The notes under the pieces are model-generated. The model did not search any database. It was not told the DNA's origin and worked only from the letters and a program-made list of their open reading frames with translations. From IMG/VR virus record IMGVR_UViG_2576861193_000004, positions 1 through 64,000 of that record: DNA of 64,000 bases. One strand, 5' to 3'. The position numbers were made by a program, and so were the translations under genes. This DNA is from a virus (lineage: Duplodnaviria; Heunggongvirae; Uroviricota; Caudoviricetes). Positions 807 through 36,440 of this stretch are shown one piece after another. Each line of letters opens with the position of its first letter. Position 1 is the first letter of the stretch.

Positions 807-916
807 CTGGTTCCGCTGACTAATAAATTTATCAGCAGTAATGATGCGACTTCATTCTTCCTGAATATGCAGATCATTTTCGATCTTCCACAGATCTATG
901 AATCGCCACGGATAAT

Positions 917-1111
917 TTAGACACTTCCGAGCCGTTGATAATACTGGTTTTCATATTCTGTCGGTGACATCTGATCGCTGGAACCATGCCGACGCTTACT
1001 GTTATAAAACATTTCGATGTAATCAAAAATATCGCTGCGGGCTTCTTCCCGCGTTCCGTAGATCTTTTTCTTTATCCGTTCGCGTTTCAACCAGCAAACA
1101 GTAGATGAAAA
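917..1111 (-). mobile_element. IS3-family transposase (OrfB) C-terminal remnant
   Basis: Minus-strand translation gives ...GTREEARSDIFDYIEMFYNSKRRHGSSDQMSPTEYENQYYQRLGSV*, matching the conserved C-terminal pattern of IS3-family DDE transposases (iFdYIE-FYN-RRHs-SP-E); the frame is closed just upstream, so only about 65 codons remain. Confidence 0.5.
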
Positions 1112-1247: not shown

Positions 1248-3587
1248 TTAATCTTCTAATTCATCTGTCGGTGATGTCTTCTCGCGCCTGTCATCTATTG
1301 CCTGTAACGCAGCAATGATTTCAGCTAATGGCTTCTCCCGGTACATCTCGACGATCTGTGATTTGGTGTATTTCTTCTCGCCAATTTCCACACGCCCGCT
1401 GGCGCTCTTGGGCAGGTATCCTTCCTCCAGCATGTATTCGACCAGAGACTCGACGACGTCCAGCCCGCGAGTCGGGTCGAAGTAGAATTTCCATGAGCAT
1501 TTGCCAAACGGAGGCGCGACTTTGTTTTTAATGCACTCGGCGCCAACGTCCTGTCCGATCTTCTCTTTGCCATCCTTCATGACGGATGCACCCAGACGGA
1601 TGCGCACCGACGCGTAGAACTTCGGAGAGTCGCCACCCGGAGACGTAGTCGGATCGCCAAACATCACACCAATTTTGGTACGCACCTGGTTCAAGAAGAT
1701 GATGCACGCGTTGTACTTACGCGCCCAAAGCGCCAGAGTAGGGAAGTTCGCACTTGTCGCGCGCGCCAGCGCCGTGTTGTCGTTCATGTTCAGCTGATCT
1801 TTGTCCTTCGCAGTGCCTTCTGCCATCTTGTCGAACTTCTCAGCCTTCGAGTTCGGAACCATCGACGCCAGAGAGTCGGCTACGATGCAGATAGGGGCTG
1901 TTTCCGGAATAAGCTCTTCGTCGCGCACCAGCTTGAGGATTGTGCCGATCAGCTCTACGGAGTCTTCGAAGGTATCCGGCTGTTTGTAGACCCACTGACC
2001 GTCGTCTTCGTCGGCGTTCAGTCCGTTCGCTACCGCCAGACCAACGTCGAAACTGTTTTCGTGGTCAAGGAATACGGCCAGACCATCCTGTTTTTGTGCT
2101 GACACCATCGCAGCCGTCGCGAGGAATGTGTTGTGGCTGATAATCCCGTTAGACCAGAAAGAGTGTGTTTCCGGCATCGCTACGTCGAACGTTGGTGCTT
2201 CACCTTCCTCAATAGCCACGACTTCGTCGTAGAACAAGTTAGAGTCAATTACCGCTGCCAGTTGTGCAAACAGATGCTCGTTAAAACGATTCTTTCTGCC
2301 AATGAAGGAGACATAGATTTCTCGCAGTTTGTCTATTCCGACACGATCGCCGCGGCCAATAACGTGATCTACCAGAACGTAGTCTTTACGAGAGGTCTTG
2401 GTGAGTGACTCGTAGAGTGATTTCACTAAGCCGCTGATGTGCGGAACGTAGCCTAAATAAGTGCGGTCAAAACTAATGTCCCGTTTGGTTGCCACTGCTA
2501 AACGAGCCGGAGACTCGAACCCAATCGTTGACAGGAAAAGGTCGTAGTTAGAGCCACTGAATGACAGCCGGTAATATATGTTTTTATAACCTGCGACGTG
2601 TTTTTCAGAGATAGTTGACGTAATCCCCAGATTCAGGAGCATGAGGCGAATTTGCTGTAGCAGCAGCCCACTCGCGCTCACAACCTCAATGCAGCGACCA
2701 TCATTGACGTGGCATTCCAGCTCAAAGTAGCCGCGAAGGAATGCAATTTGAGCCTCGCTATTGGCGCGACGCACACTCAACGGAACCTGCTTGCCAGCAG
2801 CTTTCTCATACTCCAGACCATATTCTTTAAAAAGCAGCGAACGCACCTCTTTGCTAAACAGCACATGGTCTTCCGAGCCGTTATGTTTTCTCGTAACTGG
2901 CATCTTGTCTGATACCAGCGAAATGAGGCGGTAGTACTCATCCTTGATGAATGGATCTGTGTTAGAAACATGCACAGAATTTTCAGAGGCCACGTATCCG
3001 TCAGCAATTAAATAGCCCATCAGTTTTGCGATATTGGCATCCAAGTGCTGATCGCCGAATTGATGTGTGCCAACCATTGAAGGAATCGTGTCGCCTACAC
3101 TGATTTTTTCAGCATGTCGCCAGACGACATTACCTAAGTCGTCAACCACACGGATTGGGTGACGGAACGTAGCCTCGATATAACCGCCTGATGCCAGCTT
3201 AATACGCTTGAATTTGCGACGGTTGTTCCATGTCAGGTGTGAGGTCTTCTCTATCACGCCATTTTCATTGATGAGTCCAACGTTATGCTCTACATCGCGA
3301 GTAGTGCATGTCGCTTTGTACCCTTCAATCTCAAACAACTCTTTCACTGTTACCATTCCACGCTCCGTCAGCAGCATGGTGTCTGCGGTAACACATTTCC
3401 CCGCGCTTGGTGGCCCGAATACTTCTACGATACGACCACATGGGAAACCGCCATCGTAACGACCGGAAATAGCTTTGTTTAACGGAGGAAAGCCTGTGTC
3501 AATCCAATGAGTTACTTTCTGAATTTCGTCGTTGCTACCGATTTTCTTTTTCAGAGCAAGTGCCAGTGCGGATTTTCCTTTTGCCAT
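1248..3587 (-). CDS. RecA/UvsX-like recombinase interrupted by an intein
   Basis: N-extein ...GRIVEVFGPPSAGK then C-extein TFLATAAMVSAQKQDGLAVFLDHENSFD... reconstitutes a RecA P-loop and core (compare E. coli RecA [20 protein letters not shown]...). Spliced length about 357 aa. Confidence 0.9.
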   Translation of the reverse strand: MAKGKSALALALKKKIGSNDEIQKVTHWIDTGFPPLNKAISGRYDGGFPCGRIVEVFGPPSAGKCVTADTMLLTERGMVTVKELFEIEGYKATCTTRDVEHNVGLINENGVIEKTSHLTWNNRRKFKRIKLASGGYIEATFRHPIRVVDDLGNVVWRHAEKISVGDTIPSMVGTHQFGDQHLDANIAKLMGYLIADGYVASENSVHVSNTDPFIKDEYYRLISLVSDKMPVTRKHNGSEDHVLFSKEVRSLLFKEYGLEYEKAAGKQVPLSVRRANSEAQIAFLRGYFELECHVNDGRCIEVVSASGLLLQQIRLMLLNLGITSTISEKHVAGYKNIYYRLSFSGSNYDLFLSTIGFESPARLAVATKRDISFDRTYLGYVPHISGLVKSLYESLTKTSRKDYVLVDHVIGRGDRVGIDKLREIYVSFIGRKNRFNEHLFAQLAAVIDSNLFYDEVVAIEEGEAPTFDVAMPETHSFWSNGIISHNTFLATAAMVSAQKQDGLAVFLDHENSFDVGLAVANGLNADEDDGQWVYKQPDTFEDSVELIGTILKLVRDEELIPETAPICIVADSLASMVPNSKAEKFDKMAEGTAKDKDQLNMNDNTALARATSANFPTLALWARKYNACIIFLNQVRTKIGVMFGDPTTSPGGDSPKFYASVRIRLGASVMKDGKEKIGQDVGAECIKNKVAPPFGKCSWKFYFDPTRGLDVVESLVEYMLEEGYLPKSASGRVEIGEKKYTKSQIVEMYREKPLAEIIAALQAIDDRREKTSPTDELED
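2130..3395 (-). mobile_element. intein (about 422 aa) with LAGLIDADG homing-endonuclease domain inserted in the recombinase P-loop
   Basis: Begins with Cys right after GPPSAGK, ends with HN followed by Thr (+1); internal LMGYLIADGYV motif; boundaries computed from residue positions 65 and 486. Confidence 0.8.
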
Positions 3588-3589
3588 GA

Positions 3590-3862
3590 TCAGGCTCCTT
3601 TTGTTTCGTTGATTCGTTTTAAAGCGGCGGATTCGTCGAATACAATCGCATCGTGATTAAGGAGTCTGGATACACGAGCGAGGATTTTTACGACCTGCTC
3701 GCTGACTAATCCAAACTCGCGATCTGTCGCTTTCATTCCGGCAGCGCCTAGAATTGACGGCAGTGCGATGACAGCGTACTCACCGTGATAAAAGACAATC
3801 TCTTTTGCCAGTTGGGTGGGGGTGGTTGTAGCGCCATTAATAATCGATTTAAGCATTAGCAA
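3590..3862 (-). CDS. hypothetical protein
   Basis: 90-aa ORF between the flap endonuclease and recombinase genes on the same strand; no recognisable motif. Confidence 0.4.
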   Translation of the reverse strand: MLMLKSIINGATTTPTQLAKEIVFYHGEYAVIALPSILGAAGMKATDREFGLVSEQVVKILARVSRLLNHDAIVFDESAALKRINETKGA

Positions 3863-4800
3863 TACCTTTCGAATGGAAGAACAAACACTTCAAGGTCTTC
3901 AAGGAACGAACGGAAATTCAGCTCGTAGCACAGTTGCTCGAATGCTTTCACGTCACGATTGCCTTTGATTGTTTCGATTTCGGTAGGCGGAAACTTCGTC
4001 TCAATCAGGTTCATTAGCGTGATGTTTCTCTTGAACGCTTCGAGCATTCGACAGCCTGTTTTCTCGTTGAAGGCATTCTTCGCTAGTTTGTTGAAGGCGG
4101 TCTTATGGCGTCCTTTGTCAACCACGATTGAGCCGTCGTTGATGCCGCGTACCATCGTTGCGACACTTCCCCATTCATGCAGCAGCTCTTTCGCACCGCC
4201 AGCACCAATGCCACCAACACCGCTAATGTTGTCCGATTTATCGCCTTGTAATGCTTTTGCTTCCAAAAATGCGCGAGGAGTAGCGAATCCTGTCAGCTCC
4301 GCAAATTGCTCAAAATTAACCTGCTTGTTTTTGGCGTCTTCGCGCAGGCTTACCCAGCTTACGTTTTCGCGAACTAACTGAAGCCAGTCGCTATCGCCTG
4401 TTAACAGATAGATGTGTTCAACGGTTGGCTGCGGTGCCATGCGGGATACCAGCAGCCCGGCCAGATCATCCGCTTCTGCATCTTTTGCAATGAGTTGGGT
4501 AACTCCAAGCGCGGTCATCATTTTGAGGATGTATGGCTTCTGGATAGCAAAGCCTTCCTTCATCTTTTTCATATCAGGATCGTCGTCGCGATTTGCCTTG
4601 TAGTCCGGGTAAAAGTCGCGACGCTTGTCACTAAATCCATCCCAAAGAATCATAGGTCGGGCATGGAGGATGGAGGCATAACGACGGACGTTCTTAACAA
4701 AGCCGAAAGCAGCCTGTACTTCCATTTCGCCGTTGTGCAATTTGTCAGATTGTTGGTGGTAATAACCCAGGCTATTGCCATCTACGAAGAGATAATTCAC
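3856..4800 (-). CDS. 5'-3' exonuclease / flap endonuclease (FEN, T5 D15 / RNase H-like)
   Basis: VDGNSLGYY N-terminal motif, GDSDWLQL, and H3TH motif GVGGIGAGGAKELL. Start moved to GTG at 4800 (GGAAGG Shine-Dalgarno 9 nt upstream) because the track start at 4851 overlaps the upstream terminator hairpin. Confidence 0.85.
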   Translation of the reverse strand: MNYLFVDGNSLGYYHQQSDKLHNGEMEVQAAFGFVKNVRRYASILHARPMILWDGFSDKRRDFYPDYKANRDDDPDMKKMKEGFAIQKPYILKMMTALGVTQLIAKDAEADDLAGLLVSRMAPQPTVEHIYLLTGDSDWLQLVRENVSWVSLREDAKNKQVNFEQFAELTGFATPRAFLEAKALQGDKSDNISGVGGIGAGGAKELLHEWGSVATMVRGINDGSIVVDKGRHKTAFNKLAKNAFNEKTGCRMLEAFKRNITLMNLIETKFPPTEIETIKGNRDVKAFEQLCYELNFRSFLEDLEVFVLPFERYC

Positions 4801-18586: not shown

Positions 18587-18673
18587 TGGCGGAGAGTAAT
18601 GGAATCGAACCATCATCGCTTGCGCAATGGGACGGTTTTCAAGACCGCTTGAGCACCATGCTCCCTACTCTCC
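18587..18673 (-). tRNA. tRNA-Ser: tRNA-Ser (anticodon UGA), type II with long variable arm
   Basis: Manual fold of the reverse complement: 7-bp acceptor stem GGAGAGT/ACTCTCC, discriminator G, encoded CCA, T-loop TTCGATT, anticodon loop CTTGAAA. 87 nt. Confidence 0.8.
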
Positions 18674-18772
18674 AGCTATTGTGATGGTCGGTGCTGAACT
18701 CCGACACAGGGTTGTAGCAAGCCCCGCAAAGCGCGCACTACTGTAGTTGCGGCACATCAGCCTGTGCATTCA

Positions 18773-18862
18773 TCACAACGGTAAGATCACTACCTTTCGA
18801 CCAGTCATTGTGCACATGAACGACGATTAACCGTAATGATCTTATCGTTGTGTTGTGAAGCC
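18773..18862. repeat. long stem-loop 1 in tRNA spacer (arms CACAACGGTAAGATCA / TGATCTTATCGTTGTG)
   Basis: About 17-bp inverted arms with one mismatch, separated by about 50 nt; paralogous to stem-loop 2. Confidence 0.6.
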
Positions 18863-18900
18863 AGATGCTTATCTTCTGGTTGCTTCAAAGAGCTGCACTT

Positions 18901-18996
18901 CCTCACAACGGTAAGAGCACTGGTCTGACTCTATCGATTTACGGGCTTGTGGGTCAGTATCGCCGATTCGCCCAATGCTCTTACCTGTTGTGTTGG
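18901..18996. repeat. long stem-loop 2 in tRNA spacer (arms CACAACGGTAAGAGCA / TGCTCTTACCTGTTGTG)
   Basis: About 17-bp inverted arms separated by about 50 nt; right arm abuts the 3' end of tRNA-Thr. Confidence 0.6.
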
Positions 18997-19069
18997 TGCC
19001 GGTTAACGGGATCGAACCGCTGACATCCTGCTTACAAGGCAGGCGCTCTACCAACTGAGCTAAACCGGC
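18994..19069 (-). tRNA. tRNA-Thr: tRNA-Thr (anticodon UGU)
   Basis: Reverse complement GCCGGTTTAGCTCAGTTGGTAGAGCGCCTGCCTTGTAAGCAGG...GGTTCGATCC...AACCGGCACCA: D-stem GCTC/GAGC, anticodon stem CCTGC/GCAGG, loop CTTGTAA. 76 nt. Confidence 0.85.
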
Positions 19070-19073
19070 AATT

Positions 19074-19160
19074 TGGTGGGGAGTGATGGAGTCGAACCAC
19101 CCGAGTCGCAATGACAGTAGATTTACAGTCTACCCCGCTGCCCCTACGGACTAACTCCCC
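19074..19160 (-). tRNA. tRNA-Tyr: tRNA-Tyr (anticodon GUA), type II
   Basis: Acceptor GGGGAGT/ACTCCCC, anticodon arm GTAGA-CTGTAAA-TCTAC, long variable arm, T-loop TTCGACT, CCA encoded. 87 nt. Confidence 0.8.
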
Positions 19161-19165
19161 TAAAT

Positions 19166-19240
19166 TGGCGATGGTGGGTGGATTCGAACCACCGACCAGT
19201 TGGTTAACAGCCAACTGCTCTACCGCTGAGCTACACCATC
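19166..19240 (-). tRNA. tRNA-Asn: tRNA-Asn (anticodon GUU)
   Basis: Acceptor GATGGTG/CACCATC, D-arm GCTC-AGCGGTA-GAGC, anticodon arm GTTGG-CTGTTAA-CCAAC, T-arm GGTGG-TTCGAAT-CCACC, CCA encoded. 75 nt. Confidence 0.85.
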
Positions 19241-20458: not shown

Positions 20459-20670
20459 TTTAACGCTCCTGATTCTACTAATTGCTGTAGCAATACTTTC
20501 CCTTTATCAGTTAACTGGTAGTTGGCCGAACACCACGTTTCAGAAACGTTTGCAACCAACCCTAACCGCTCTAACTTAGCTCGCGTTTTAGGCTTCCAGT
20601 ACTCAGGGAACTCCGGCCACTTACTTATTTCATGAAGCGTTTCTTTCTCCCGTTTACTTAATACGATCAT
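20455..20670 (-). CDS. hypothetical protein
   Basis: 71-aa ORF whose start overlaps the ligase stop by 4 nt (coupled). Confidence 0.45.
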   Translation of the reverse strand: MIVLSKREKETLHEISKWPEFPEYWKPKTRAKLERLGLVANVSETWCSANYQLTDKGKVLLQQLVESGALK

Positions 20671-21989
20671 TCTTTATCTCCGATTCGATCTTCGGTATCG
20701 CGTAAGCAACGCGGCCATTTCAGTCGTGGGTGGCGTAAGCTGCCATCCGGCGTTTTCTCGTGACAATGAACCTCGACAATACGACCACGGTACTTCTCTT
20801 TGTTGTTCCAGATCTCGTCCAGATATTTATGCTTAATGCCGCTCGCACGAACAATCACACCGTTTTCAAGGCGAATAACAATTTTTCCAAGCGTGTTGGC
20901 AAAACCAGAGTCCGGGTCGCCAGGCTCAAAGTCGATAATTTCACCATCTTCTGAATCTTCGTCTTTTAACTTCCACCAGCTGCGGGTACGTTTAAACTCG
21001 TAAACAGAGTTCGGATCTTTGCCCATCTCCCCTTCTTCGTTATCGTCCAGGCGTTTCATGAAGCGTTCGATGAAGTCTTCGTGGCTATGGATGATATAGA
21101 ACGGATGCAGGTGAATGTCTTGTGCGTAGCCTTCACTGCGATCGTTTTTAAACAACGCCACCAGCATAGCCAGGCGCTCTTTCAGCTTCATACCTGTCTT
21201 TGCATACTCTTTGGATTTAGCCTGTGCCCGCCATTCCGGTAGGAAGAAGTCGAAAACATGATAAATAGCGCCAATTGCCTGCACGTTCTTTTTGCGCAAT
21301 GCAGATACGGACTGGTTAAATGAACCGGCTGTTCCTTCACCATCGAAGAAGATGTGTTTGTGGCCTGAAAGTTTGCCTAATTCGAGCATTGCTGGCTTTA
21401 GGTGATCGAGAGACGTGATTGGATTACCAGTACGAGAAAGGAAGTTAACCTCTTCCTCGTCAACAATAACCTCACAAATTACTCGCAAACCATCGAGCTT
21501 AAGGCTGCCAATCATCGGCCATTTGGCTTTAGGATTTGGCTTGAAGGGGTATTTGTCGCCTTTTTCTTTATACGGTGACGCCAGCTGCACCTCGAATTTC
21601 GGAATGGGATTTTCAAAAACCTTGTTGCATAGGCTAATCCCAACACCTGCTTTCGGGTCTTTTAAGAGGAAACGACGGAACACGTCCTGCCCATCGGCGC
21701 ACATTGACGCCACGATAGACTCAACAGCTGCTATTGCTGCGTTCCCCGTCAGCTCGCGAGAGGCCAGCTTATTCAGTATATCAATGGCTTTTTCGTCACT
21801 TGGGACGGACTCACTAAGCGGCTCTGCCACTTTGTATTTCTTTACCCCAAAACGGATGAAAGGGTTGAGCATCAATGAAACCATGCTTTGCTCGAAGTCA
21901 TCCATGTTGGCCAATGCCTCTTTTTTTGCATTGGTTCCCATAGCTTTCATTTCGTCCAGCTTATGCTTAAGTGCGATCAACTTTTTCAT
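20667..21989 (-). CDS. ATP-dependent DNA ligase
   Basis: Adenylation motif I KLDGLR (catalytic lysine), nucleotidyltransferase-superfamily layout, 440 aa. Confidence 0.85.
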   Translation of the reverse strand: MKKLIALKHKLDEMKAMGTNAKKEALANMDDFEQSMVSLMLNPFIRFGVKKYKVAEPLSESVPSDEKAIDILNKLASRELTGNAAIAAVESIVASMCADGQDVFRRFLLKDPKAGVGISLCNKVFENPIPKFEVQLASPYKEKGDKYPFKPNPKAKWPMIGSLKLDGLRVICEVIVDEEEVNFLSRTGNPITSLDHLKPAMLELGKLSGHKHIFFDGEGTAGSFNQSVSALRKKNVQAIGAIYHVFDFFLPEWRAQAKSKEYAKTGMKLKERLAMLVALFKNDRSEGYAQDIHLHPFYIIHSHEDFIERFMKRLDDNEEGEMGKDPNSVYEFKRTRSWWKLKDEDSEDGEIIDFEPGDPDSGFANTLGKIVIRLENGVIVRASGIKHKYLDEIWNNKEKYRGRIVEVHCHEKTPDGSLRHPRLKWPRCLRDTEDRIGDKE

Positions 21990-22468
21990 TGTTGTTTTGC
22001 CTCCATATGTTGATCGATTTGCTCATGTGTTTCTTTTGTTGTTTCTTCAAGCAACGCCGCATACACGTCAGTGATCGCTGTTTGTGATGTGGTGCTCTTC
22101 TTAACCATGCTATTAATCGTTACACTGTCACGTTTTCGTTTTATAGTTCTGGCTTGTTTATTCCGTTCTTCAACCTCCTTAATGAGCGCGGTCATATCTT
22201 CGAAATACAGAGATTCTCCTTTACGAATCTCTTCAACCATCATTTTTAACGCCTTGCATTTGCCTGCTTTAATAGCGGTTGCGCACGACTGGAAAGAAGT
22301 TCGAGGAAGACGGTTTTCTTTGAAGGCAAGAATGGTGTGCTGGCAAACGGAATAGCTGCAATATGCCGACTCACCGTTTATCTTTACTTCCTCACAACGA
22401 AGTGAATAACCGTTATTTCCTGAAATAGAAGGGATTTTTGACAAATCAGCTTTCACAACTACCGCCAT
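21986..22468 (-). CDS. hypothetical protein (Cys-containing)
   Basis: 160 aa with several Cys (possible metal site); stop overlaps the ligase start. Confidence 0.45.
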   Translation of the reverse strand: MAVVVKADLSKIPSISGNNGYSLRCEEVKINGESAYCSYSVCQHTILAFKENRLPRTSFQSCATAIKAGKCKALKMMVEEIRKGESLYFEDMTALIKEVEERNKQARTIKRKRDSVTINSMVKKSTTSQTAITDVYAALLEETTKETHEQIDQHMEAKQQ

Positions 22469-22523
22469 AAATAATCTTGTACTTACCTATCGTTATTTGC
22501 GTAAAAAACGACGCGCGGAGAGA

Positions 22524-23300
22524 TTACCAACTTCCCCAGCTAACCATCTTGCGCTGATTGCTTTCTAAGCGATAGGGGACAAGAAGCTCTGTGACATGAT
22601 TGGTGGCGTATGATTTGGCCTCTTGCTCTATCATCGGTAATTCGTTAGCAATCCTGACCACCTTCCAAGCAAATTCCGCCATTACGCCATCACATGCCTT
22701 CCCAGCATCAATAACGATATGCACCAGATCCAACTGGCTTTTGCACATGTCGCAAAGAGACGCATACTCACTCTCTCTGATTACATTTACGGCATCATTA
22801 GCCCCTTTATTAAGCAAGACTTCCAACAGGTTTTTCGGGGTAACGAAATCTGCTTTCAGAGATAATGTCTTTTCACCACTTATCGAACGCAAGTACTCTT
22901 CGTAGTTATTCTTCATCAAACCGCTGCTGCGCATTGCTAGAACTGCTTCTTGAATGGCCGCTTCAATAGTTTCGTCGTTTGAAAGACAAAAAACGGTATT
23001 TGTGTAGATCACTTTGCCATCCATCCATGCACCAACCTGCACTTTAAGACTGAGCGGGTTTTCTTTGCTAATAAAAACAACTAATGCAGAACGCCGTGCA
23101 CAAGAAGGTTCACCCCATACGTGTAACTCAACTTTCAGATAAGGTAGCCCTGGTAGCGGGATCTCAACCAAACGAGTGGCGATATGATCCATTGCTGTTT
23201 TTACCGCTTTTTCAATGATGTCTAGTCGATTGCTCTCGCTGATTTCTAAACCAGTTTTATCAATGATGTCGCAGGCTAATTTCTGAATTTCGTCTTTCAT
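22524..23300 (-). CDS. hypothetical protein
   Basis: 258-aa ORF in the replication operon; no motif. Confidence 0.45.
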   Translation of the reverse strand: MKDEIQKLACDIIDKTGLEISESNRLDIIEKAVKTAMDHIATRLVEIPLPGLPYLKVELHVWGEPSCARRSALVVFISKENPLSLKVQVGAWMDGKVIYTNTVFCLSNDETIEAAIQEAVLAMRSSGLMKNNYEEYLRSISGEKTLSLKADFVTPKNLLEVLLNKGANDAVNVIRESEYASLCDMCKSQLDLVHIVIDAGKACDGVMAEFAWKVVRIANELPMIEQEAKSYATNHVTELLVPYRLESNQRKMVSWGSW

Positions 23301-23375
23301 ACCAACTCCTAGCTAACAGATGAAAGTATTCTTACAGAAAGATAAGTAATCATCTACTTATTTTAGCGGCACTTG

Positions 23376-24629
23376 TTACGATAGCGCCTTAATGCCCAAA
23401 ACCTTGCTTTGCAACTCCAACTGTTTGGTATACGGTTTTGCCCGATAATAGGCTTTGATAATTTGTTCTGGCGTTGCATCGCCTGGGTCGAGTCCTTCCT
23501 CGCCCAAACATGCTACTTTGACATTAAGACCAATACTGGTCAGTCGCCTGGCTGCGGCCATAGTGTTGCGTATAGCTTGCTTTTCACTATCCCACATCAT
23601 GATCACATTACGTAATCCACGCGCCTTGAGCGTCAGGAACGCGCCCAACTGATCTTCTGCATCCTGAGTGGTGTTACCAGATAGATGCATCCCGAACGTT
23701 CCTATCGGTTCCACGTAATCACGTAATGTTTCTTCATCAAAAATAGCTCGTTTAACTCCCATAACATCGAACGCCCCCTCACAGACAACTACAGTCTGTT
23801 TGCCGACCGCATTATGGCCGTTGTAGAGAAACTTACCTGAAGCTGGAAGCTGCATAGGAAAGAGGTAGCGACGTTCAGCTGTACCGGTAATGTCTCGCCC
23901 CTGAAATGTCTTCATTACCCCATCCAGATCGTAAACCGGTATCAGTATTCGCATATCGAATATCTGTCCTTTAACCTGATCTGTATACGGATCTACATAA
24001 GCGTGCTTGCCTTCGACGCAGTATCGTAGGTCAAAATACTTTGCCATTTCAGGCGATATGTTTCGTTCAACCAGATAGTCTGGAAGACGGCCATCTATAG
24101 GAAGTTCGTAATGACGAGGGAGTGCAAGTGGTCCCTCTAACTCGACTGTGCTTGCAAGCACTATCTCTTCTTTCTTTGGTGCCCACCCCTGGGAAAGAAG
24201 GGCGTTCTGCACATATTCCTCGAACTGTCGTCGTGATTTGCCGCTGTAGTGCTTGAGGAAGACCAGCTTATTGAACTGAATCTCTTCGGGATGATCACCA
24301 GCGAAGCATTTACCGACGCCACTGGTCAGATTGAAATATACCTTCCAGTTGGAGCTGCCACATACCGGACACTCCTTGATATTCACTTCACGACCGCGAG
24401 TACTCACGCCTCCACGTCGATAAACGATACCTTCAGTATCCAACCATTGTTCAAAATCTAATTCGGTAATTAGCTCTTTCAGCTCGCTCACGATAATTCC
24501 ACTTTTAACAGGCAATATTGTGACCAACCTAAATGTTGATATAACATAAAGGCTCATGTGTTTTTCTTTTGTGGTTTGGCAAAAGAAAAGTTGTTTCACC
24601 AATGAATCAAGCGTGGAGGTGTTCTCCAC
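23376..24629 (-). CDS. dnaG: DnaG-type DNA primase (zinc-ribbon + TOPRIM)
   Basis: Zinc ribbon CPVCGSS...C..GDH, TOPRIM-like VVVCEGAFD; located directly downstream of the helicase gene. Confidence 0.8.
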   Translation of the reverse strand: MENTSTLDSLVKQLFFCQTTKEKHMSLYVISTFRLVTILPVKSGIIVSELKELITELDFEQWLDTEGIVYRRGGVSTRGREVNIKECPVCGSSNWKVYFNLTSGVGKCFAGDHPEEIQFNKLVFLKHYSGKSRRQFEEYVQNALLSQGWAPKKEEIVLASTVELEGPLALPRHYELPIDGRLPDYLVERNISPEMAKYFDLRYCVEGKHAYVDPYTDQVKGQIFDMRILIPVYDLDGVMKTFQGRDITGTAERRYLFPMQLPASGKFLYNGHNAVGKQTVVVCEGAFDVMGVKRAIFDEETLRDYVEPIGTFGMHLSGNTTQDAEDQLGAFLTLKARGLRNVIMMWDSEKQAIRNTMAAARRLTSIGLNVKVACLGEEGLDPGDATPEQIIKAYYRAKPYTKQLELQSKVLGIKALS

Positions 24630-24638
24630 GCTTATTTT

Positions 24639-25979
24639 TTAGGTAACGTCTAAGATTCGCTCAATGAAGCGCATTTGTTCGAGGTTTTGTTTAACGCGAA
24701 TGCTGATCCCTCCCTGCTGGTTACGTGAACCAGCAAAGTAGAGACGAGCCTCTCCTTTCGCTTCTTCTTCTTCTGTTTTGTTGATCGTTATTACCAGGTC
24801 AGCAATACGTACTTTTTCGATGTTGTCGGCAGCGTGCATCATTGTGGCAACTTCTGACGCGCCACCTTCACGGTTTGTCTGCGATGCCGTGATCCCAGCA
24901 ACGTTATGCTTGTCATAAAGAGCACGTAAATCGGTGTAGATACTACGAATGTTGGCGCGATCATCACGAAGGTCATAACTGGCACGCATCAAATCTGCGT
25001 AGTCGACAACAACCATGTCAGGTACCATGCCGTTGGCTTTCATGCTGTTAAGCATACGGTCCAGATCTGCCGGTGACATACTTCCTGACGGACGCTCAAC
25101 CACCCACAAACTACCAATCCCCTTCGTGGCTCCCAACTCTGCCAACTTACGATGAACCTCATCGCGCCGTTCCACCAGCTTGGACATTTCTGTCTCCGAC
25201 AATCTTGCATCAAAACGGTCGGATAAAATGGTGGTGTGAACCTCCAGCGAGAGATACAGAACATTGTAGCCAGCAAGCGTTGCGTTTATGGAAAACTCAC
25301 CCATTGCGGTCGATTTACCGGATTTAGCGAACCCCATGAAGAGCACCATTTCACGCTTCGCCCAGCCTTTTTGGTACAGCAACCTATCGAGCAGAGGGAG
25401 TCCAGTTGTAATGCTGTTTGGCACATACTCCTCTGAAGCCTCATATTCACGCGCTTTCAATCGCTCACTTGCGGAGGTGTAGTAGTCATAGATTCCGGTC
25501 GCTTCGTTCGATCCAATCTGCTGAACCTTGGCCATGATTGCCATCGCCCCCTGAAAGTCGCCCTTCTCTTTCAGTTCAGCAGCCTTAATCAGAGCATCAT
25601 CAAACGCTACGCTTTTTGCGAAGGTTGATACCTGGTCAACCATGTACGAGGTATCAGACAATTTTTCTGCAAGGATGCGCTTAAACGCAGCAACAACATC
25701 GGCGAATAGTTCCTCACGGATAGTCTTATCGCGTTTCGCACGCTTAAGCATATCCAGAATCGCAGATGAAGAGGGCGCGCTCTTGTACATACGGTAATAG
25801 CCCGAAACCATATTAACCAATATGGCATTGGCCGCATTGGCAAATTGGCTAGGTACAACCAGATCTCCAGCACGAGTAAGAAACTCGTGATCACGACAAA
25901 AATAGGCCGTCAATCTGTTCTGAAAATCTTCATCAAACTCTTCGGACAGCCCGCGTCCTGTATGGCAAAGTTCGGTCAT
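24639..25979 (-). CDS. dnaB: DnaB-family replicative helicase
   Basis: RecA-like C-terminal domain with Walker A GFAKSGKST and hexameric-helicase motifs; 446 aa. Confidence 0.85.
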   Translation of the reverse strand: MTELCHTGRGLSEEFDEDFQNRLTAYFCRDHEFLTRAGDLVVPSQFANAANAILVNMVSGYYRMYKSAPSSSAILDMLKRAKRDKTIREELFADVVAAFKRILAEKLSDTSYMVDQVSTFAKSVAFDDALIKAAELKEKGDFQGAMAIMAKVQQIGSNEATGIYDYYTSASERLKAREYEASEEYVPNSITTGLPLLDRLLYQKGWAKREMVLFMGFAKSGKSTAMGEFSINATLAGYNVLYLSLEVHTTILSDRFDARLSETEMSKLVERRDEVHRKLAELGATKGIGSLWVVERPSGSMSPADLDRMLNSMKANGMVPDMVVVDYADLMRASYDLRDDRANIRSIYTDLRALYDKHNVAGITASQTNREGGASEVATMMHAADNIEKVRIADLVITINKTEEEEAKGEARLYFAGSRNQQGGISIRVKQNLEQMRFIERILDVT

Positions 25980-26022
25980 GTGCTTTCCTTTGTTTTTTAA
26001 ACAAATTGTTTTCTAGTATTAG

Positions 26023-26772
26023 TTAATTAGATAGGGGATCAATAAACCGCCGTGCTTCTTCCAGTTCTTCTGGAAAGTGGGCGGAAATAAGGCGCTCTGG
26101 AACGATTTCCATTAGCCAGATAGCGGAGAAAATTGCGCGTATGCGCTTGCTGCGGGGGATGGTGCGTAAACGCTCCAGAATCCACTCAAAATAGCTTTCC
26201 TGAATCGGGTTGAACTGCATGTCTCCCATATGCTTAAAGCTAACCAGAGAGTCATCCAGACGGGTTGTTGCGCGTCTGGCTAATTTCTCTTCAAATATCT
26301 CAATCAGTTCTGGCTGCCACAAATGCTGTGGGCGCGGCAGCTTGTCCCACAGCCGTCGTGCAGCTGCGGAAAGAACGGTGGAGATAAAGTAGTCGTATGA
26401 GCAGCAATAGCGATCCGCAAACTGGCGTGCTTTCCATAGCGACGTTTTATTGGCAGTCGACAACTCCTGATAAGGCAGGCGTTTTAACCCGGTGGTGAAC
26501 GGAGCTGTTTCAAAGTGTTCGCGACCGTGCGTCAGCATGATATTTGAGTACTGACGTTTGTATGCCTCCGTAAAAAGACAGGTGGCCATGAGAGGATGCA
26601 TGTCGCGGTAATCAAACCACTTCGTCTCGAAGAGTTCAGCCTCGTCTTTACAGCGCGACAAACCAATGTTATCAGCGACCCACTTGTCCATAACAGCGGT
26701 ATTCCACTCTGTCATGAAGTCGTACTGGTCGTTGTCGATGGTATCGAAAAAGATTTGGCTCATGTGGCTCAC
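26023..26772 (-). CDS. hypothetical protein, first gene of the replication operon
   Basis: 249 aa, no P-loop; position upstream of dnaB suggests a replication accessory role. Inference only. Confidence 0.45.
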   Translation of the reverse strand: MSHMSQIFFDTIDNDQYDFMTEWNTAVMDKWVADNIGLSRCKDEAELFETKWFDYRDMHPLMATCLFTEAYKRQYSNIMLTHGREHFETAPFTTGLKRLPYQELSTANKTSLWKARQFADRYCCSYDYFISTVLSAAARRLWDKLPRPQHLWQPELIEIFEEKLARRATTRLDDSLVSFKHMGDMQFNPIQESYFEWILERLRTIPRSKRIRAIFSAIWLMEIVPERLISAHFPEELEEARRFIDPLSN

Positions 26773-26879
26773 CTGGTAGGTAGTTACTTACTTATCACAA
26801 TGAGCGGATGATAGCGACTGGTGGCAGTTTTTGGAAGTGGAAACGGAAGGGAGTTGTTCTGGTGGTGTCTTTTAAAAGA

Positions 26880-26934
26880 CCTGCTTCCGTATATATTTAA
26901 TAAGTTACTTATTATTTATATATACAGAAGCAGG
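26880..26934. repeat. 55-bp imperfect palindrome, copy A (CCTGCTTCCGTATATATTTAATAAGTTACTTATTATTTATATATACAGAAGCAGG)
   Basis: Identical 55-mer also at 58829..58883; 17-bp arms with one asymmetric position around an AT-rich palindromic core AATAAGTTACTTATT; flanked by perfect palindrome GTCTTTTAAAAGAC. Confidence 0.9.
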
Positions 26935-27045
26935 CATAACTTGTCGTCTTAGACGCCCAGAAGCTCTACACTTTGAGCCTGTTAAATTGATTAAAAACTT
27001 ATGTGTAAAATAGAACGCATTAGTCAGTAGCAAAGAGATGCAATA

Positions 27046-27813
27046 ATGGACGATTTATCGGTATACGCGAGATCATTGGATAAGGCTAAATACTATGTTT
27101 ACTGTCTCTATGATACAGAAGACAAGATGAAAAGACCGTTTTACATAGGAAAAGGCAAATCGACTCGTTGTCTCGATCACATCAAGTATCCCGATGACTC
27201 TCCCAAATCCATGCGGATCAAAGAACTTTTGGCTAATAAAAAATTAGGCATAGATATACTTCGTCATGGTATGGATGAAACCACAGCCAAACTTGTTGAG
27301 GCGACATGCATCGACCTTATGGGGGTCGGAGAGCTTACGAATAAGGTACGAGGAAGTGGTTCCATGATGGGCAGAATATCACTGGACGCCTACCATCACT
27401 TAGTGCTGCAAGAGGAAACTGAAATTGCTCCTGAGCACGCCGGTCTTGCCTTCCTGCTAAACAGCACCTACAAGTCAGGAATGTCCGCTCTGGCATTATA
27501 TGAAGCTACGCGTGGCGTATGGGCAAAGGTTCCAAGAGACGAGAATCTCAAATATGCCTACGCTACATATGGTGGGCTGATAATGGAAGTTTATCAGATT
27601 GAATGCTGGGTCAAAGCCGGTTCTCAGCAGTACTTTACAAGGGATATAGCTCTTGGCCCCGACACAAAACGTTATGAATTTGTTGGCAGAATAGCCGATG
27701 AGCATATTAGAAAACTGTATGTAGGCAAATTAATCAAGAAGCCACCAAGCTACGGTAGCCCTTTTGTGAAGGTTGGGGTGGTTAGGACTGAACATAGTGT
27801 TAGCGCGGCATAA
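27046..27813 (+). CDS. GIY-YIG domain nuclease
   Basis: N-terminal YYVYCLYD...PFYIGKGKSTR (GIY-YIG core); 255 aa with uncharacterised C-terminal half. Confidence 0.7.
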   Translation: MDDLSVYARSLDKAKYYVYCLYDTEDKMKRPFYIGKGKSTRCLDHIKYPDDSPKSMRIKELLANKKLGIDILRHGMDETTAKLVEATCIDLMGVGELTNKVRGSGSMMGRISLDAYHHLVLQEETEIAPEHAGLAFLLNSTYKSGMSALALYEATRGVWAKVPRDENLKYAYATYGGLIMEVYQIECWVKAGSQQYFTRDIALGPDTKRYEFVGRIADEHIRKLYVGKLIKKPPSYGSPFVKVGVVRTEHSVSAA

Positions 27814-27829
27814 AGCTGACACTGTAGTT

Positions 27830-27867
27830 ATGCATTGGCGCAATGTACGCGCCAATGCATGATTTTT
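27830..27867. terminator. bidirectional terminator between convergent genes
   Basis: Perfect 12-bp inverted repeat ATGCATTGGCGC / GCGCCAATGCAT with 7-nt loop, followed by gattttt. Confidence 0.6.
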
Positions 27868-28225
27868 AACCTTTCTTCATCAACTCTCGTTTGATTTCAT
27901 CGGTACGCATCGTGACATCGGCAGCGGTGATCGCCTCATTCAATTTCACGATGTCCTCGATTTCCTGCGGTGACTTCTCTGCCAGATGGAAAATGGCTGC
28001 TCGAATCACGTCAGAACGAGTGAACTTCTCGAAGCGAGGGATGAACTTCATCATCTCCAGCAGTTCGAAGTATTCGTCCTCCAGTGACATTGTGCGGCTT
28101 TTAATTTTCTCTTTGCCACGAGTCGGGCGTCCCTGTGGTCTGACTGGTTGGCGCAAAGGAGTTGTGTTCTTAGCCGGTGCATCAGGCTCTTTGCGCTTTG
28201 CTAGGTCACCCATTTTCATGGACAT
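27866..28225 (-). CDS. small basic partner of ParA (ParG-like, putative centromere-binding protein)
   Basis: 119 aa, basic N-terminus; gene start abuts the parA stop. Role inferred from position. Confidence 0.4.
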   Translation of the reverse strand: MSMKMGDLAKRKEPDAPAKNTTPLRQPVRPQGRPTRGKEKIKSRTMSLEDEYFELLEMMKFIPRFEKFTRSDVIRAAIFHLAEKSPQEIEDIVKLNEAITAADVTMRTDEIKRELMKKG

Positions 28226-28893
28226 TATTCTTCTTCCTCCAGACTCAACAGATAATCTACAAATTCTTCAAACTCGGCTTCCGCCTTTTTGTCGCGCTCG
28301 CTACCGGTCATTTCAAAGATAGAACGACCAGACTCTTCCGCATCATCATAGACGTTGCGGTTATACAGATTGACTGGCGCAGACTCGATTCCAAACGTCT
28401 CAACAATCTCTTTAGCCGCCAGAATGCGAGACACTTGTGATGGCAAAGCCGGACACTGGTTCATGACCGCGCGGACCTTCACTTTATCGTTTACATTGCG
28501 AACATTGTCGATAATAGGATCGATGTCACGTAAAGATTTCAAATCACGACGCTTAGGACGCAGCGGGATAATGATAACGTCAGCCATCAGCATCGCTTGT
28601 CGCTGAATTTCGGAGTCGAAGCCACCAGCATCTACCACTACAAACTCAGCTCTACCCTGAAGCGATTTTAGGTGCTTAATGATGTCATCCTGAACGTATG
28701 CAAAAGGAATCAGCTCAAGGTCTTCGTTCTGTCGACGGTCTTCACACCAGCTCGTTGTCGTGCGCTGAATATCTATATCGGTAATATAAACCTTCTTCTT
28801 CTTTTTGACTTTCAGGCAAACGGCAATTTGCTGGGCAACGGTGGATTTGCCAGGCCCGCCCTTTGTGCCGCCAACCACAAAGATCTTGGTCAT
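28225..28893 (-). CDS. parA: ParA-family partition ATPase (small type Ib)
   Basis: Deviant Walker A KIFVVGGTKGGPGKST at N-terminus, 222 aa. Confidence 0.85.
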   Translation of the reverse strand: MTKIFVVGGTKGGPGKSTVAQQIAVCLKVKKKKKVYITDIDIQRTTTSWCEDRRQNEDLELIPFAYVQDDIIKHLKSLQGRAEFVVVDAGGFDSEIQRQAMLMADVIIIPLRPKRRDLKSLRDIDPIIDNVRNVNDKVKVRAVMNQCPALPSQVSRILAAKEIVETFGIESAPVNLYNRNVYDDAEESGRSIFEMTGSERDKKAEAEFEEFVDYLLSLEEEE

Positions 28894-29211
28894 TGGAGAG
28901 TTCCCTTTGCGTATATAATTATCGTCTGAAACAACTTGTTTTCTTATATGTGATATAGCCTAAATGCCTACGGCTGCGGTGTAAAGGTTAAATGGTAGGT
29001 TGTGATTAACAATTGGCAATCATAGCTTGTATTTGTCTGTTGAAAAAAGTAACAATGACCTCTATATTACAAGTACGGTGATATGCCGTACACAATTTGA
29101 TAATGCACACGTAATGGGCTATAGCCTTTTAAAGTAATTTTTGAGTCGAAAACTCAGTTTGAACAGAGGAGATTGATGGCCTTCCTACATCACGGCCATC
29201 AGGAGGAATAC

Positions 29212-29481
29212 ATGTCAGCACTAAAAAAGCAGCGCATCGATTTGAGATTAACCGATGACGATAAAAGCATCATCGAGGAAGCTGCCGCAATGTCTAACCA
29301 GAGCATTACTCAGTTTATGGTTAGCAGTGCATCTGAACGTGCCGTGAAAGTTATAGAGCAACACCGTAGACTAGTTCTGAATGAAGAATCCTGGAATCTG
29401 GTTATGGACGCTATAAGCAATCCTCCGGCACCGAACGACAAGCTGAAACGAGCTGCTGATCGTCTGAAAAGCATGGAGTAG
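29212..29481 (+). CDS. DUF1778 (TacA/AtaR-family) antitoxin
   Basis: 90 aa MSALKKQRIDLRLTDDDKSIIEEAAA...NPPAPNDKLKRAA; AGGAGG Shine-Dalgarno 6 nt upstream of ATG 29212 (track start 29173 is TTG). Confidence 0.85.
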   Translation: MSALKKQRIDLRLTDDDKSIIEEAAAMSNQSITQFMVSSASERAVKVIEQHRRLVLNEESWNLVMDAISNPPAPNDKLKRAADRLKSME

Positions 29482-29488
29482 TTTACTC

Positions 29489-30010
29489 GTGAGCAATACA
29501 ACGATAGAGATTTTCTCTGGAGAGAAAGATTATGATCTAAACGGTTTTGATTGCGGCGAAGAGTCACTAAACGCCTTTTTAGCCAACCACTTAAAAAGGC
29601 AGCATGAGGGAAAAATTCTTCGTGCTTATGTGCTTTGCACTCAAGAAGAAAGGCCAAAAGTGTTAGGATATTACACTTTGTCAGGTAGTTGTTTTGAAAA
29701 GGAGTCCTTACCTTCAAGAAGCAAACAAAAGAAGGTTCCTTATCGGAATGTTCCAAGTGTTACTTTGGGTAGGCTGGCTTTGGACAAGTCCCTTCAAGGT
29801 CAAGGATTTGGCTCAATGCTTGTAACACATGCAATGCGCGTTGTGTACAATGCATCTCTTGCTGTAGGCATTCATGGACTTTTCGTTGAGGCGTTAAATG
29901 ACAAAGCCAAGGCGTTTTATAAAAGTTTAGGCTTTATCCAGCTGGTTGGTAACAACGAGCGTTCTTTGTTCTATCCTACAAAATCTATCGAAAAATTGTT
30001 CGAAGAATAA
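29489..30010 (+). CDS. GNAT-family acetyltransferase toxin (TacT/AtaT-like)
   Basis: 173 aa, GNAT motif A LQGQGFGSMLV; starts 8 nt after the antitoxin stop. Family members acetylate aminoacyl-tRNA. Confidence 0.85.
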   Translation: MSNTTIEIFSGEKDYDLNGFDCGEESLNAFLANHLKRQHEGKILRAYVLCTQEERPKVLGYYTLSGSCFEKESLPSRSKQKKVPYRNVPSVTLGRLALDKSLQGQGFGSMLVTHAMRVVYNASLAVGIHGLFVEALNDKAKAFYKSLGFIQLVGNNERSLFYPTKSIEKLFEE

Positions 30011-30042
30011 TGTGTTCCCCTCATTTGAGGGGAACTTCGACA

Positions 30043-30258
30043 TCACCAACCACAAACCCTCTCTCCCATCGTATTGTGAAAAAGGATTTGGCGTTCGGTT
30101 TCTTCAGTCATTACATCATTATTGCTGATATAGATAGGCTCAGCCCCATCGCAGAACAACACGCTGGCTGTTTGTGGTTTAATGACGCACCCACTTATCA
30201 TACAACTCACGATGAACGGCAGAAGCATCTTTCTGACGTATTTTACTGCTCGTCTCAT
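30043..30258 (-). CDS. Rz1-like outer-membrane lipoprotein spanin candidate (overlapped in Rz)
   Basis: Signal-peptide-like MLLPFIVSCMISGC with lipobox-like ISGC; overlaps the 3' end of the Rz-like gene in another frame. Confidence 0.35.
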   Translation of the reverse strand: MRRAVKYVRKMLLPFIVSCMISGCVIKPQTASVLFCDGAEPIYISNNDVMTEETERQILFHNTMGERVCGW

Positions 30259-30430
30259 TCACCACTTTCACTGTGTTTTGAAGTCGTTTTCTGTCTTCCT
30301 GTTTTGCCTTCTCTTCCATTGCTCGTCGCGCCGCATTCCCGCCCATCGTGTAAGCGCCGACAAGAACGAAAAGAACGGCAGCCAGCGTAATCAAAGCAAC
30401 TTTTAGCTTTGTCATCAGGCTGCCTAGCAT
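30179..30430 (-). CDS. Rz-like inner-membrane spanin candidate
   Basis: 83 aa: N-terminal TM (VALITLAAVLFVLVGAY) followed by charged helical region; located downstream of the putative lysin. Confidence 0.45.
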   Translation of the reverse strand: MLGSLMTKLKVALITLAAVLFVLVGAYTMGGNAARRAMEEKAKQEDRKRLQNTVKVVNETSSKIRQKDASAVHRELYDKWVRH

Positions 30431-30431
30431 A

Positions 30432-31151
30432 TTAGACCATCCCTTTCTGGTGTTTTCTTACCTGCGACCAGGCAATGAATCCTGCCACAACAATAGTGGC
30501 AATACCGAAGATGATGCGTACTGTATCCCCGCTAGAGATATGACCTTGTGCTTTATCCATAGCAGCGGAAACCTGCGGCATAACATCGGCCAGCTGCGCC
30601 AGACCAATACCTGCTGTAACAGTTGCGCCTGCGGTTTCTTTAGTTACAGGAACAGCCTTCACGGTTTTCACCGGCTTAACAACGCCAGCTCGACGCAGAC
30701 CTTCCTCAATAACTTCTGCCGCATACCAGGTGTTCAGCGTTTTTAGCGGGCCTCGGCCATTCTCGTGGCGAATGATTGCCTCAACCAAAGGTCGAAGGAT
30801 GTCGTAATCATGCAGATCGATGATCATGTCTGCGGTTACACCAACGGCTTTAGACACCTCATTAATGTAGGCGTCAGTATTGTTTTCATTCGGCGGTGCC
30901 CAGCGTTCAATAACTTCACGAATGGTATCGATACTTGTGCCGTCTTTTGCGCGACGTTTATCGTGGTAGGTAATTAGAGTCACCGCCAGCGCACGAATCC
31001 CCCAAACAGGGTCTTTAAACGTGCAAAAGCGCGGTTCGTCTGGATTCGCAACCAGACCTTGCCACGGTGATCCTTTATCAAGATTACCGGGGTTATTATT
31101 ACGAATGCCTCTCGGAGTTTTCATCCTTGATCTCCTGTTATTGCAGTCCAC
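30432..31151 (-). CDS. putative cell-wall hydrolase / endolysin with C-terminal transmembrane helix
   Basis: 239 aa with GIRNNNPGNL motif near the N-terminus and C-terminal hydrophobic segment IIFGIATIVVAGFIAW; assignment rests mainly on position between holin-like and spanin-like genes. Confidence 0.35.
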   Translation of the reverse strand: MDCNNRRSRMKTPRGIRNNNPGNLDKGSPWQGLVANPDEPRFCTFKDPVWGIRALAVTLITYHDKRRAKDGTSIDTIREVIERWAPPNENNTDAYINEVSKAVGVTADMIIDLHDYDILRPLVEAIIRHENGRGPLKTLNTWYAAEVIEEGLRRAGVVKPVKTVKAVPVTKETAGATVTAGIGLAQLADVMPQVSAAMDKAQGHISSGDTVRIIFGIATIVVAGFIAWSQVRKHQKGMV

Positions 31152-31473
31152 TTTTTACGCCATACGCGGCTAACCCCAAAAGCAGTGCGGTAATAATGAA
31201 CGACGTTATTTTAGAAACAATGCCGCCAAAGAACCCACTGGAGATGGTGTCGAGCCGGTTAAGAAGTTTGTCCAGATTGGAGTGCTGAATGCTGTGTTGT
31301 GCGGGCGTCATATCGCCAAAGTAGGTTTTGAGCTGGTCATTGACCTCCTGACCAATTTCCTCGCGTATTTCTTTACCTAATTTGCCTACGACTTCCCGAG
31401 CAACGATTGAGGCGATGCGCTCAACCTGTTCAGTTGTGACTCCCGCCATCTCGTTCGACATGTTTTCCTCCAT
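31138..31473 (-). CDS. tail-anchored membrane protein (holin candidate)
   Basis: 111 aa, hydrophilic N-terminus and single C-terminal TM (ITSFIITALLLGLAAYGV); first gene of the lysis cluster. Confidence 0.3.
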   Translation of the reverse strand: MEENMSNEMAGVTTEQVERIASIVAREVVGKLGKEIREEIGQEVNDQLKTYFGDMTPAQHSIQHSNLDKLLNRLDTISSGFFGGIVSKITSFIITALLLGLAAYGVKSGLQ

Positions 31474-31594
31474 GAAAAGTCAAATCGGGATGGCGTGTTT
31501 ATATCATATTTTAACCATTTGTAGTAGGTATGTACTTACCTACTATATATCTTGCAAACTAATCGTTGTTAATAATGCAGATATAATCTGCCCC

Positions 31595-36348: not shown

Positions 36349-36440
36349 GTTGAATATGCTCCTTGATTTGGCGGGCTATCCTTGCCCGCCATTAAGTATA
36401 TACTTACCTATTTTTACCGATATAAAATTTTTTTCCACCA

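Follow-up and report, generated by a model that had tools for sequence, protein, structure and literature searches.

A probable class-1 intein with a LAGLIDADG homing endonuclease in the Walker A motif of an SSU5-type phage-plasmid recombinase

The window, i.e., the whole analysed stretch of 64,000 nt (positions 1 to 64,000 of the IMG/VR record IMGVR_UViG_2576861193_000004), contains near its start an open reading frame (ORF) for the precursor of a RecA/UvsX-like recombinase, and the Walker A motif (P-loop) of this recombinase is interrupted by a long in-frame insert (Table 1). The insert is very probably a bona fide class-1 intein with a double-motif LAGLIDADG homing endonuclease, located at K64|T of the Walker A motif in the recombinase of an SSU5-type phage-plasmid. 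An earlier reading of the DNA made from its letters (hereafter the sequence-only reading) had given the insert these same boundaries and this same length, together with a spliced product of 357 amino acids (aa), and all of these values are exact by ORF translation and in silico removal of the insert. It had also placed the insert directly after GPPSAGK (residues 58–64 of the 779-aa precursor), with Cys1 at its start, a terminal His-Asn and a +1 Thr. The codon positions agree (Cys1 at 3395-3393, Asn422 at 2132-2130 and the +1 Thr at 2129-2127), and the 3′ junction of the insert reads ...GIISHN|TFLATAAM.

Table 1. Positions of the recombinase gene, its intein and further features in the window.
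Feature	Position	Strand	Description	Basis
Precursor ORF, RecA/UvsX-like recombinase with intein inside	1248..3587	minus	779 aa; stop codon 1248-1250	ORF list
Shine-Dalgarno AAGGAG	3595..3600	minus	7 nt 5′ of the recombinase ATG	Read in the sequence
Upstream ORF	3590..3862		90 aa; ends 2 nt before the recombinase ATG	ORF list
N-extein	3396..3587	minus	Residues 1–64; the last seven are the Walker A start GPPSAGK	
C-extein	1251..2129	minus	Residues 487–779; the first residue is the +1 Thr	
Intein	2130..3395	minus	422 aa, precursor residues 65–486; Hint splicing domain split by a double-motif LAGLIDADG endonuclease domain	
Block A	3357..3395	minus	CVTADTMLLTERG; nucleophile Cys1	Block alignment; TIGR01445 on residues 65–147
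Block B	3147..3188	minus	GGYIEATFRHPIRV; Thr76-x-x-His79 (T76-F-R-H79)	Block alignment
Block C, first LAGLIDADG motif	2994..3023	minus	LMGYLIADGY; putative catalytic Asp132	Alignment to PI-PkoII and V-ATPase inteins
Block D	2772..2795	minus	GKQVPLSV; conserved K-x-VP	Block alignment
Block E, second LAGLIDADG motif	2706..2744	minus	AFLRGYFELECHV; Glu227	Alignment to PI-PkoII
Block H	2622..2666	minus	LLLQQIRLMLLNLGI; most conserved stretch among relatives	L253, L254 and G257 invariant in the alignment
Blocks F and G	2130..2234	minus	FYDEVVAIEEGEAPTFDVAMPETHSFWSNG and IISHN; His421 penultimate, Asn422 terminal	Block alignment; TIGR01443
Crossover interval in the intein	3044..3087	minus	Single interval, codons 104–118	Informative-site comparison
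Short dispersed repeat	897..949		53 bp	
tRNA cluster	18587..19240	minus	Ser-TGA, Thr-TGT, Tyr-GTA, Asn-GTT	

Profile searches separate the precursor into recombinase and intein parts. In the precursor the Pfam RecA match is broken into two stretches, and these become a single stretch (E 8e-43) after in silico splicing. Pfam Intein_splicing matches the insert over residues 9–422 (E 2e-12; 47.5 bits against a cutoff of 35.8), while LAGLIDADG_3 is found in the middle of it (E 1e-18). Both terminal intein models of NCBIfam, TIGR01445 (intein_Nterm) and TIGR01443 (intein_Cterm), score above their cutoffs, the latter with 17.9 bits against 15.6. The sequence-only reading was to be given up if careful alignment failed to reveal the intein blocks, and every one of them was found: A, B, C, D, E, H, F, and G could all be located and aligned with 10 relatives. 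Their core motifs are CVTADTMLL (A), TFRH (B), LMGYLIADG (C), KQVP (D), LRGYFELEC (E), LMLLNLG (H), PTFDVAMPETHSFWSNG (F), and ISHN (G).

The residues typical of class-1 inteins, namely Cys1, the T-x-x-H of block B, and H421-N422 followed by the +1 Thr, are all present. Cys1 is kept in all 22 copies examined and in every relative compared. Where the sequence-only reading had described a single LAGLIDADG motif, the motif is indeed present but there are two of them, LMGYLIADG at intein residues 125–133 (Asp132) and LRGYFELEC at residues 220–228 (Glu227). Both have an acidic residue at motif position 8, and in the alignment with PI-PkoII Glu227 occupies the column of the catalytic “GDG” Asp. At position 9 the second motif has Cys in place of the usual Gly.

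An AlphaFold model of the intein, built from 11 sequences, has a pLDDT of 80.9 and a pTM of 0.85. The best Foldseek match of this model is the TliVMA intein (7qss; E 1.6e-21, TMq 0.69), and PI-PkoII (2cw7), PI-PfuI (1dq3) and PI-SceI are also among the top matches, all of them endonuclease-bearing inteins. Mini-inteins and hedgehog Hint domains match the splicing part over ≈110–125 columns, and I-DmoI and the endonuclease domains of PI-PfuI, PI-PkoII, and TliVMA match the endonuclease part. In TliVMA, PI-PkoII, PI-PfuI, and the yeast PI-SceI the Hint domain is interrupted by a double LAGLIDADG domain, as in the window intein; TMq is 0.61–0.69 for the three archaeal inteins, and both LAGLIDADG motifs align. 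The inteins of solved structure nevertheless share only 15–21% sequence identity with the window intein and are found in other hosts (V-ATPase, DNA polymerase, and ribonucleotide reductase), and the window intein is bacterial, phage-borne and mesophilic, unlike the solved archaeal ones.

Alleles without the insert show what the uninterrupted site looks like. The recombinases of phage SSU5 (SSU5_060, 358 aa) and phage CMS-2020a (357 aa) are intein-free and contiguous at the predicted ligation point, GPPSAGK|TFLATAAM, so that the Walker A Thr (GxxxxGKT) and the +1 Thr are one and the same residue. The spliced product has ≈95% protein identity to the SSU5 recombinase. The sequence-only reading had expected that removal of the insert would restore a RecA-like P-loop and had proposed a comparison with intein-free alleles of relatives; the restored P-loop is identical to that of the SSU5 and CMS-2020a alleles, and the empty sites are contiguous at K|T. 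Chance can be excluded on the basis of the Pfam and NCBIfam intein matches, the rejoined RecA match and the contiguous intein-free alleles. A group I intron with a free-standing endonuclease gene was also considered, and is ruled out by the continuous in-frame ORF and the Hint blocks.

Going by the conserved residues, splicing would start with an N-to-S acyl shift at Cys1, and the thioester would then be attacked by the hydroxyl group of the +1 Thr to give a branched intermediate. Cyclisation of Asn422, assisted by His421, would release the intein, and an O-to-N shift would create the K-T peptide bond, yielding the 357-aa recombinase with an intact P-loop and a free endonuclease of 48 kDa. Because the Walker A motif is split, the unspliced precursor is expected to be ATPase-dead, and it is reasonable to infer from the same split motif that recombinase activity depends on splicing.

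Judging by its profile matches, the host protein is a phage RecA-like recombinase and not an ortholog of cellular RecA. The extein matches phrog_97 (“UvsX-like recombinase”) with an E-value of 4e-92, whereas the score for the bacterial RecA equivalog TIGR02012 (135.7 bits) is below the cutoff of 325.3 bits that defines the equivalog. Searched against PHROGs, the precursor matches both phrog_97 and phrog_9666, a 779-aa profile with the label “unknown function”. The neighbours of the recombinase gene encode a single-strand DNA binding protein and a 5′-3′ exonuclease; in the record of phage Cyrano the neighbours are named T4 gp32-like single-strand DNA binding protein and UvsY-like mediator. As the upstream 90-aa ORF stops 2 nt before the ATG, the recombinase gene is part of an operon. 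A promoter and terminator scan around the gene gave sites no more numerous than in shuffled sequence.

The identical 779-aa protein is present on 88 public contigs, and its 90% identity cluster has 1496 members. The names given to the precursor gene in databases are inconsistent. Most RefSeq copies are called “LAGLIDADG family homing endonuclease”, while “recombinase RecA”, “intein-containing recombinase RecA”, “Protein RecA” and, for PHROG 9666, “unknown function” are also found. Most of these names mask the identity of the gene, which is that of a phage-plasmid recombinase carrying an intein.

The intein itself is already known and was published in 2015 as RecA-c2. The available text of Topilina et al. 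(2015, NAR 43:6631, PMC4513877) lists “c2 (65-486)” among the RecA inteins of E. coli (eight strains), Enterobacter (two) and Salmonella (one), and its Table 1 gives M8ZI95 and E9WNB4 (E. coli), V3IU74 (Enterobacter cloacae), and V0ELC0 (Salmonella enterica) as c2 examples. We equate the window intein with RecA-c2 because the residues (65–486), the P-loop K|T site and the host genera are all the same, and the element as presented in that text does not differ from ours. The difference is in the host, which is treated there as bacterial RecA, whereas the gene described here belongs to an SSU5-type phage-plasmid module. That a phage-plasmid recombination module, and not chromosomal recA, is the host of the intein is thus added by the present analysis. 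Some RefSeq copies already carry the name “intein-containing recombinase RecA”, and literature searches for an intein in SSU5/pHCM2-type phage-plasmids or in E. coli RecA gave no specific paper; the hits read for phage-plasmids and pHCM2 do no more than cite work on engineered toxin-inteins.

The position between K and T of the Walker A motif is a “classic” P-loop insertion point for inteins (Kelley et al., 2016, PMC5050341). Mycobacteriophage TerL1-a, DnaB-b, MCM-a, and RFC-a (PMC5050341, PMC4760082) likewise separate the invariant Walker A Lys from the nucleophilic Thr, but in host proteins other than the one seen here. According to the available text of PMC4513877, the intein of Pyrococcus horikoshii (Pho) RadA (insertion c1; PDB 4e2t) occupies the equivalent position in the P-loop of a homologous recombinase. 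It matches the Hint fold of the window intein (Foldseek rank 22), but is an archaeal mini-intein of 172 aa without an endonuclease and is unrelated in sequence beyond the Hint blocks. Independent invasion is inferred in the same text. The RecA intein of Mycobacterium tuberculosis (PI-MtuI, RecA-a) also bears an endonuclease and also resides in a RecA-family recombinase, but its site, as stated there, is residue 252 and not the P-loop. A match to the corresponding Mtu-type family, NF007072, was rejected (94.7 against 1024 bits); the RecA part is uninterrupted over model positions 71–253, so the insertion site is a different one.

A wider family of related inteins was identified by an exhaustive search of representative proteins with the intein, since a word-index search gave only 14 proteins and missed the full-length cluster. 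At E ≤ 1e-30 the exhaustive search gave 182 representative clusters. The nearest relatives (41–47% identity) are all located in RecA P-loops at the same GK|T point, while more distant ones (33–35% identity) are found at GK|T of SF2 (ResIII/XPB-like) helicases, UvrD and DnaB-like helicases. The strongest NCBIfam matches reaching into the intein region are models of intein-containing archaeal RFC and aIF2. The endonuclease domain is degraded or lost in several of the RecA relatives (P0007, P0010, P0013, and P0014), in line with what the homing cycle predicts. Two metagenomic proteins, P0035 and P0045 (bona fide RecA, 1146–1148 aa), contain two inteins each; the one in the P-loop is related to the window intein, and the second, with a LAGLIDADG_2 domain, is located further downstream.

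In PLSDB, 248 records contain the intein DNA, and the site is uninterrupted in 561 of 815, so about 30% of the alleles carry the intein. Expressed as the ratio of intein records to all records with the recA site, its share differs between genera: ≈54% in Escherichia (123/229), ≈45% in Enterobacter (41/92), ≈21% in Klebsiella (71/336), ≈2% in Salmonella (1/49), and 0% in Yersinia (0/63). This skew could reflect target-site variants, a lack of contact between lineages, or sampling. Among complete E. coli genomes the intein is found in 120 of 5426, on plasmids every time. The 80 IMG/VR loci include 18 with the intein and 61 without it.

The 18 intein-plus alleles of IMG/VR are spread over at least four extein backgrounds. 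Each of them is exactly 1266 bp long in the intein, has an intact ORF and is 97–99% identical to the window copy. The same discordance is seen for a K. pneumoniae plasmid, where the intein is 98.9% identical to that of the window, compared with 79.7% for the N-extein and 83.9% for the C-extein. All of the 22 copies examined have intact 1266-bp ORFs and have kept every splicing residue. The ratio of non-synonymous to synonymous substitution rates (dN/dS) of the endonuclease domain is 0.14–0.25, also when measured against an E. albertii copy of 92.6% identity, and this domain is thus under purifying selection. The GC content at third codon positions is 0.53 in the intein versus 0.62 in the exteins.

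The DNA flanking the insertion point carries a further signature. Every intein-plus allele has the donor-type junction GCGGGGAAA|ACATTC, while the empty sites are of other types: GCAGGGAAA|ACGTTC in CMS-2020a, GCCGGTAAA|ACCTTT in SSU5, and GCTGGTAAA|ACCTTC in Klebsiella. The nearest intein-free relatives have synonymous differences at −7 and +3, and in some backgrounds also at −4, +6, +7, and +9. None of the 61 empty sites in IMG/VR has both donor-type halves, as would be expected after precise loss of the intein or in a naive target, and the best empty site among the PLSDB matches listed is 91.3% identical to the donor type over 150 nt. The intein-plus allele L089 differs from its nearest intein-free allele at only 5 of 1032 nt, and three of these differences are at −7, −4, and +3 (binomial probability of such clustering ≈9e-6). 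The tracts shared with the donor range from −7 to +3 up to more than 100 nt.

The window allele is itself a recombinant of two parents. When compared with two intein-plus lineages, L082 and L073, its 210 informative sites form one run of 40 consecutive L082-type sites followed by 170 L073-type sites with zero exceptions, and the per-domain differences are consistent with a single crossover. The N-extein and intein codons 1–104 thus match the L082 type, and intein codons 118–422 and the C-extein the L073 type. Since the crossover is located within the intein, the intein provides a stretch of homology common to both lineages, and diverged extein halves are joined through it.

We favour recent endonuclease-driven homing with co-conversion as the explanation that would best account for the frequency, the discordance with the exteins, the shared junction, the selection on the endonuclease domain and the deviating composition. 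The population data suggest that when intein-plus and intein-minus phage-plasmids meet in one cell, the endonuclease would cut the uninterrupted recA site, and repair of the break would copy the intein along with a short flanking tract. The sequence-only reading had described the intein as a selfish element nested within a mobile genome, and this description fits an SSU5-like phage-plasmid in which the DNA indicates horizontal spread of the intein.

Several points weigh against this interpretation. The Cys at the end of the second LAGLIDADG motif (LRGYFELEC) means that endonuclease activity may not be taken as guaranteed, and our search of the literature found no published splicing or cleavage experiment on the intein. 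The synonymous differences next to the junction could in part be due to cleavage-resistant targets that have been selected in the intein-free alleles, instead of co-conversion. Phage-plasmids also clearly undergo ordinary homologous recombination with one another, and this could spread the intein with no endonuclease involved. Target-site immunity and plain homologous recombination are therefore partial alternatives to homing.

Taken to its end, the latter alternative says that splicing has been kept while the endonuclease is dead, and that the intein now persists only through vertical transmission and the ordinary homologous recombination of phage-plasmids with one another. The intein would then be retained since precise deletion is rare and an imprecise one destroys the P-loop. 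Such a history would accommodate the Cys that replaces the terminal Gly of the second motif as well as the recombination between intein-plus alleles demonstrated by the window copy, and it follows the path of decay taken by the RecA relatives P0007, P0010, P0013, and P0014. We nonetheless consider it unlikely, because the dN/dS of the domain (0.14–0.25) and the intact ORFs of 1266 bp in 22/22 copies do not resemble decay, donor tracts as short as −7 to +3 fit break repair better than general recombination, and near-identical inteins are found in exteins that have diverged by 16–20%.

The intein could also be imagined as a conditional splicing switch, by which the recombinase would be gated by temperature, redox state, DNA damage, or the change of prophage induction or lysogeny versus lytic replication. 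The intein shares its insertion point with the one in Pho RadA, a protein whose native exteins gate splicing according to the available text of PMC4513877; Cys1 is redox-sensitive in principle, and the intein is frequent, with 54% of the Escherichia and 45% of the Enterobacter alleles in PLSDB. However, conditional splicing has been demonstrated for Pho RadA and not for the window intein, and packing of extein and intein as in RadA is described in the same text as not feasible in a model of the E. coli RecA precursor (Topilina et al., PMC4513877). Moreover, ≈70% of the alleles manage without the intein, including 63/63 records from Yersinia and 48/49 from Salmonella, and a distribution that is patchy and discordant with the exteins is what would be seen for a parasite. 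A switch of this kind appears quite improbable to us, and it is more likely that the intein is still homing among the phage-plasmids of Escherichia, Klebsiella, and Enterobacter.

It is hardly credible that the insert fails to splice at all, leaving an inactivated recombinase or what amounts to a stand-alone endonuclease gene in fused form, although the name given to most RefSeq copies (“LAGLIDADG family homing endonuclease”) and the “unknown function” of phrog_9666 might imply this. The splicing residues are intact in 22/22 copies, the exteins are in frame and their product is ≈95% identical to the SSU5 recombinase, and the continuous ORF has its own ribosome-binding site. True pseudogenes have a different appearance, with insertion sequence (IS) elements (L008 and L009). 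In L008 (E. albertii plasmid CP043239.1, 1525..3000) an IS3-family element is located in the C-extein, and the ORF of the intein is intact. In L009 (E. coli plasmid CP059946.1, about 3775..4592) an IS1-like element is located inside the intein, and the C-extein contains a frameshift too.

The value of the intein as a discovery is small, as it has been published, is named in part in RefSeq, and belongs to the best-known insertion class (P-loop K|T). New here are the phage-plasmid host module, the frequency of ≈30% in PLSDB, the homing signature in the DNA, and the recombinant nature of the window copy. Among the sequenced SSU5/pHCM2-type phage-plasmids, which number several hundred and come from clinically relevant Enterobacteriaceae, ≈30% carry the intein. 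Some intein-plus and intein-minus sister alleles are only a few bases apart, and homing, co-conversion and target-site immunity could therefore be measured in E. coli with a natural and genetically tractable system; if the intein is still homing, the invasion of a population by an intein could be followed in the same system.

By its closest relatives, the window is an SSU5/pHCM2-type phage-plasmid. The recombinase gene is 100% identical to the copy on the E. coli plasmid CP142569.1 (IncFIB, non-mobilizable, 122.5 kb) and 92–93% identical to the genes of the phages Cyrano, PhiR41_1, and vB_KpnS_p4727. CP142569.1 is also the closest plasmid record, and the first 20.7 kb of the window are 99.7% identical to it. 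From 20666 to 37345 only gapped blocks of 80–97% identity follow, and the backbone is thus mosaic beyond the recombination module. The short dispersed repeat of Table 1 recurs with 100% identity elsewhere in CP142569.1 (L004 33636..33688), where it has the Phd/Doc toxin-antitoxin genes on one side and the primase gene on the other. An IS3-family transposase is located in CP142569.1 just upstream of the region that matches the start of the window. Finally, the window carries a cluster of four tRNA genes on its minus strand (Table 1).

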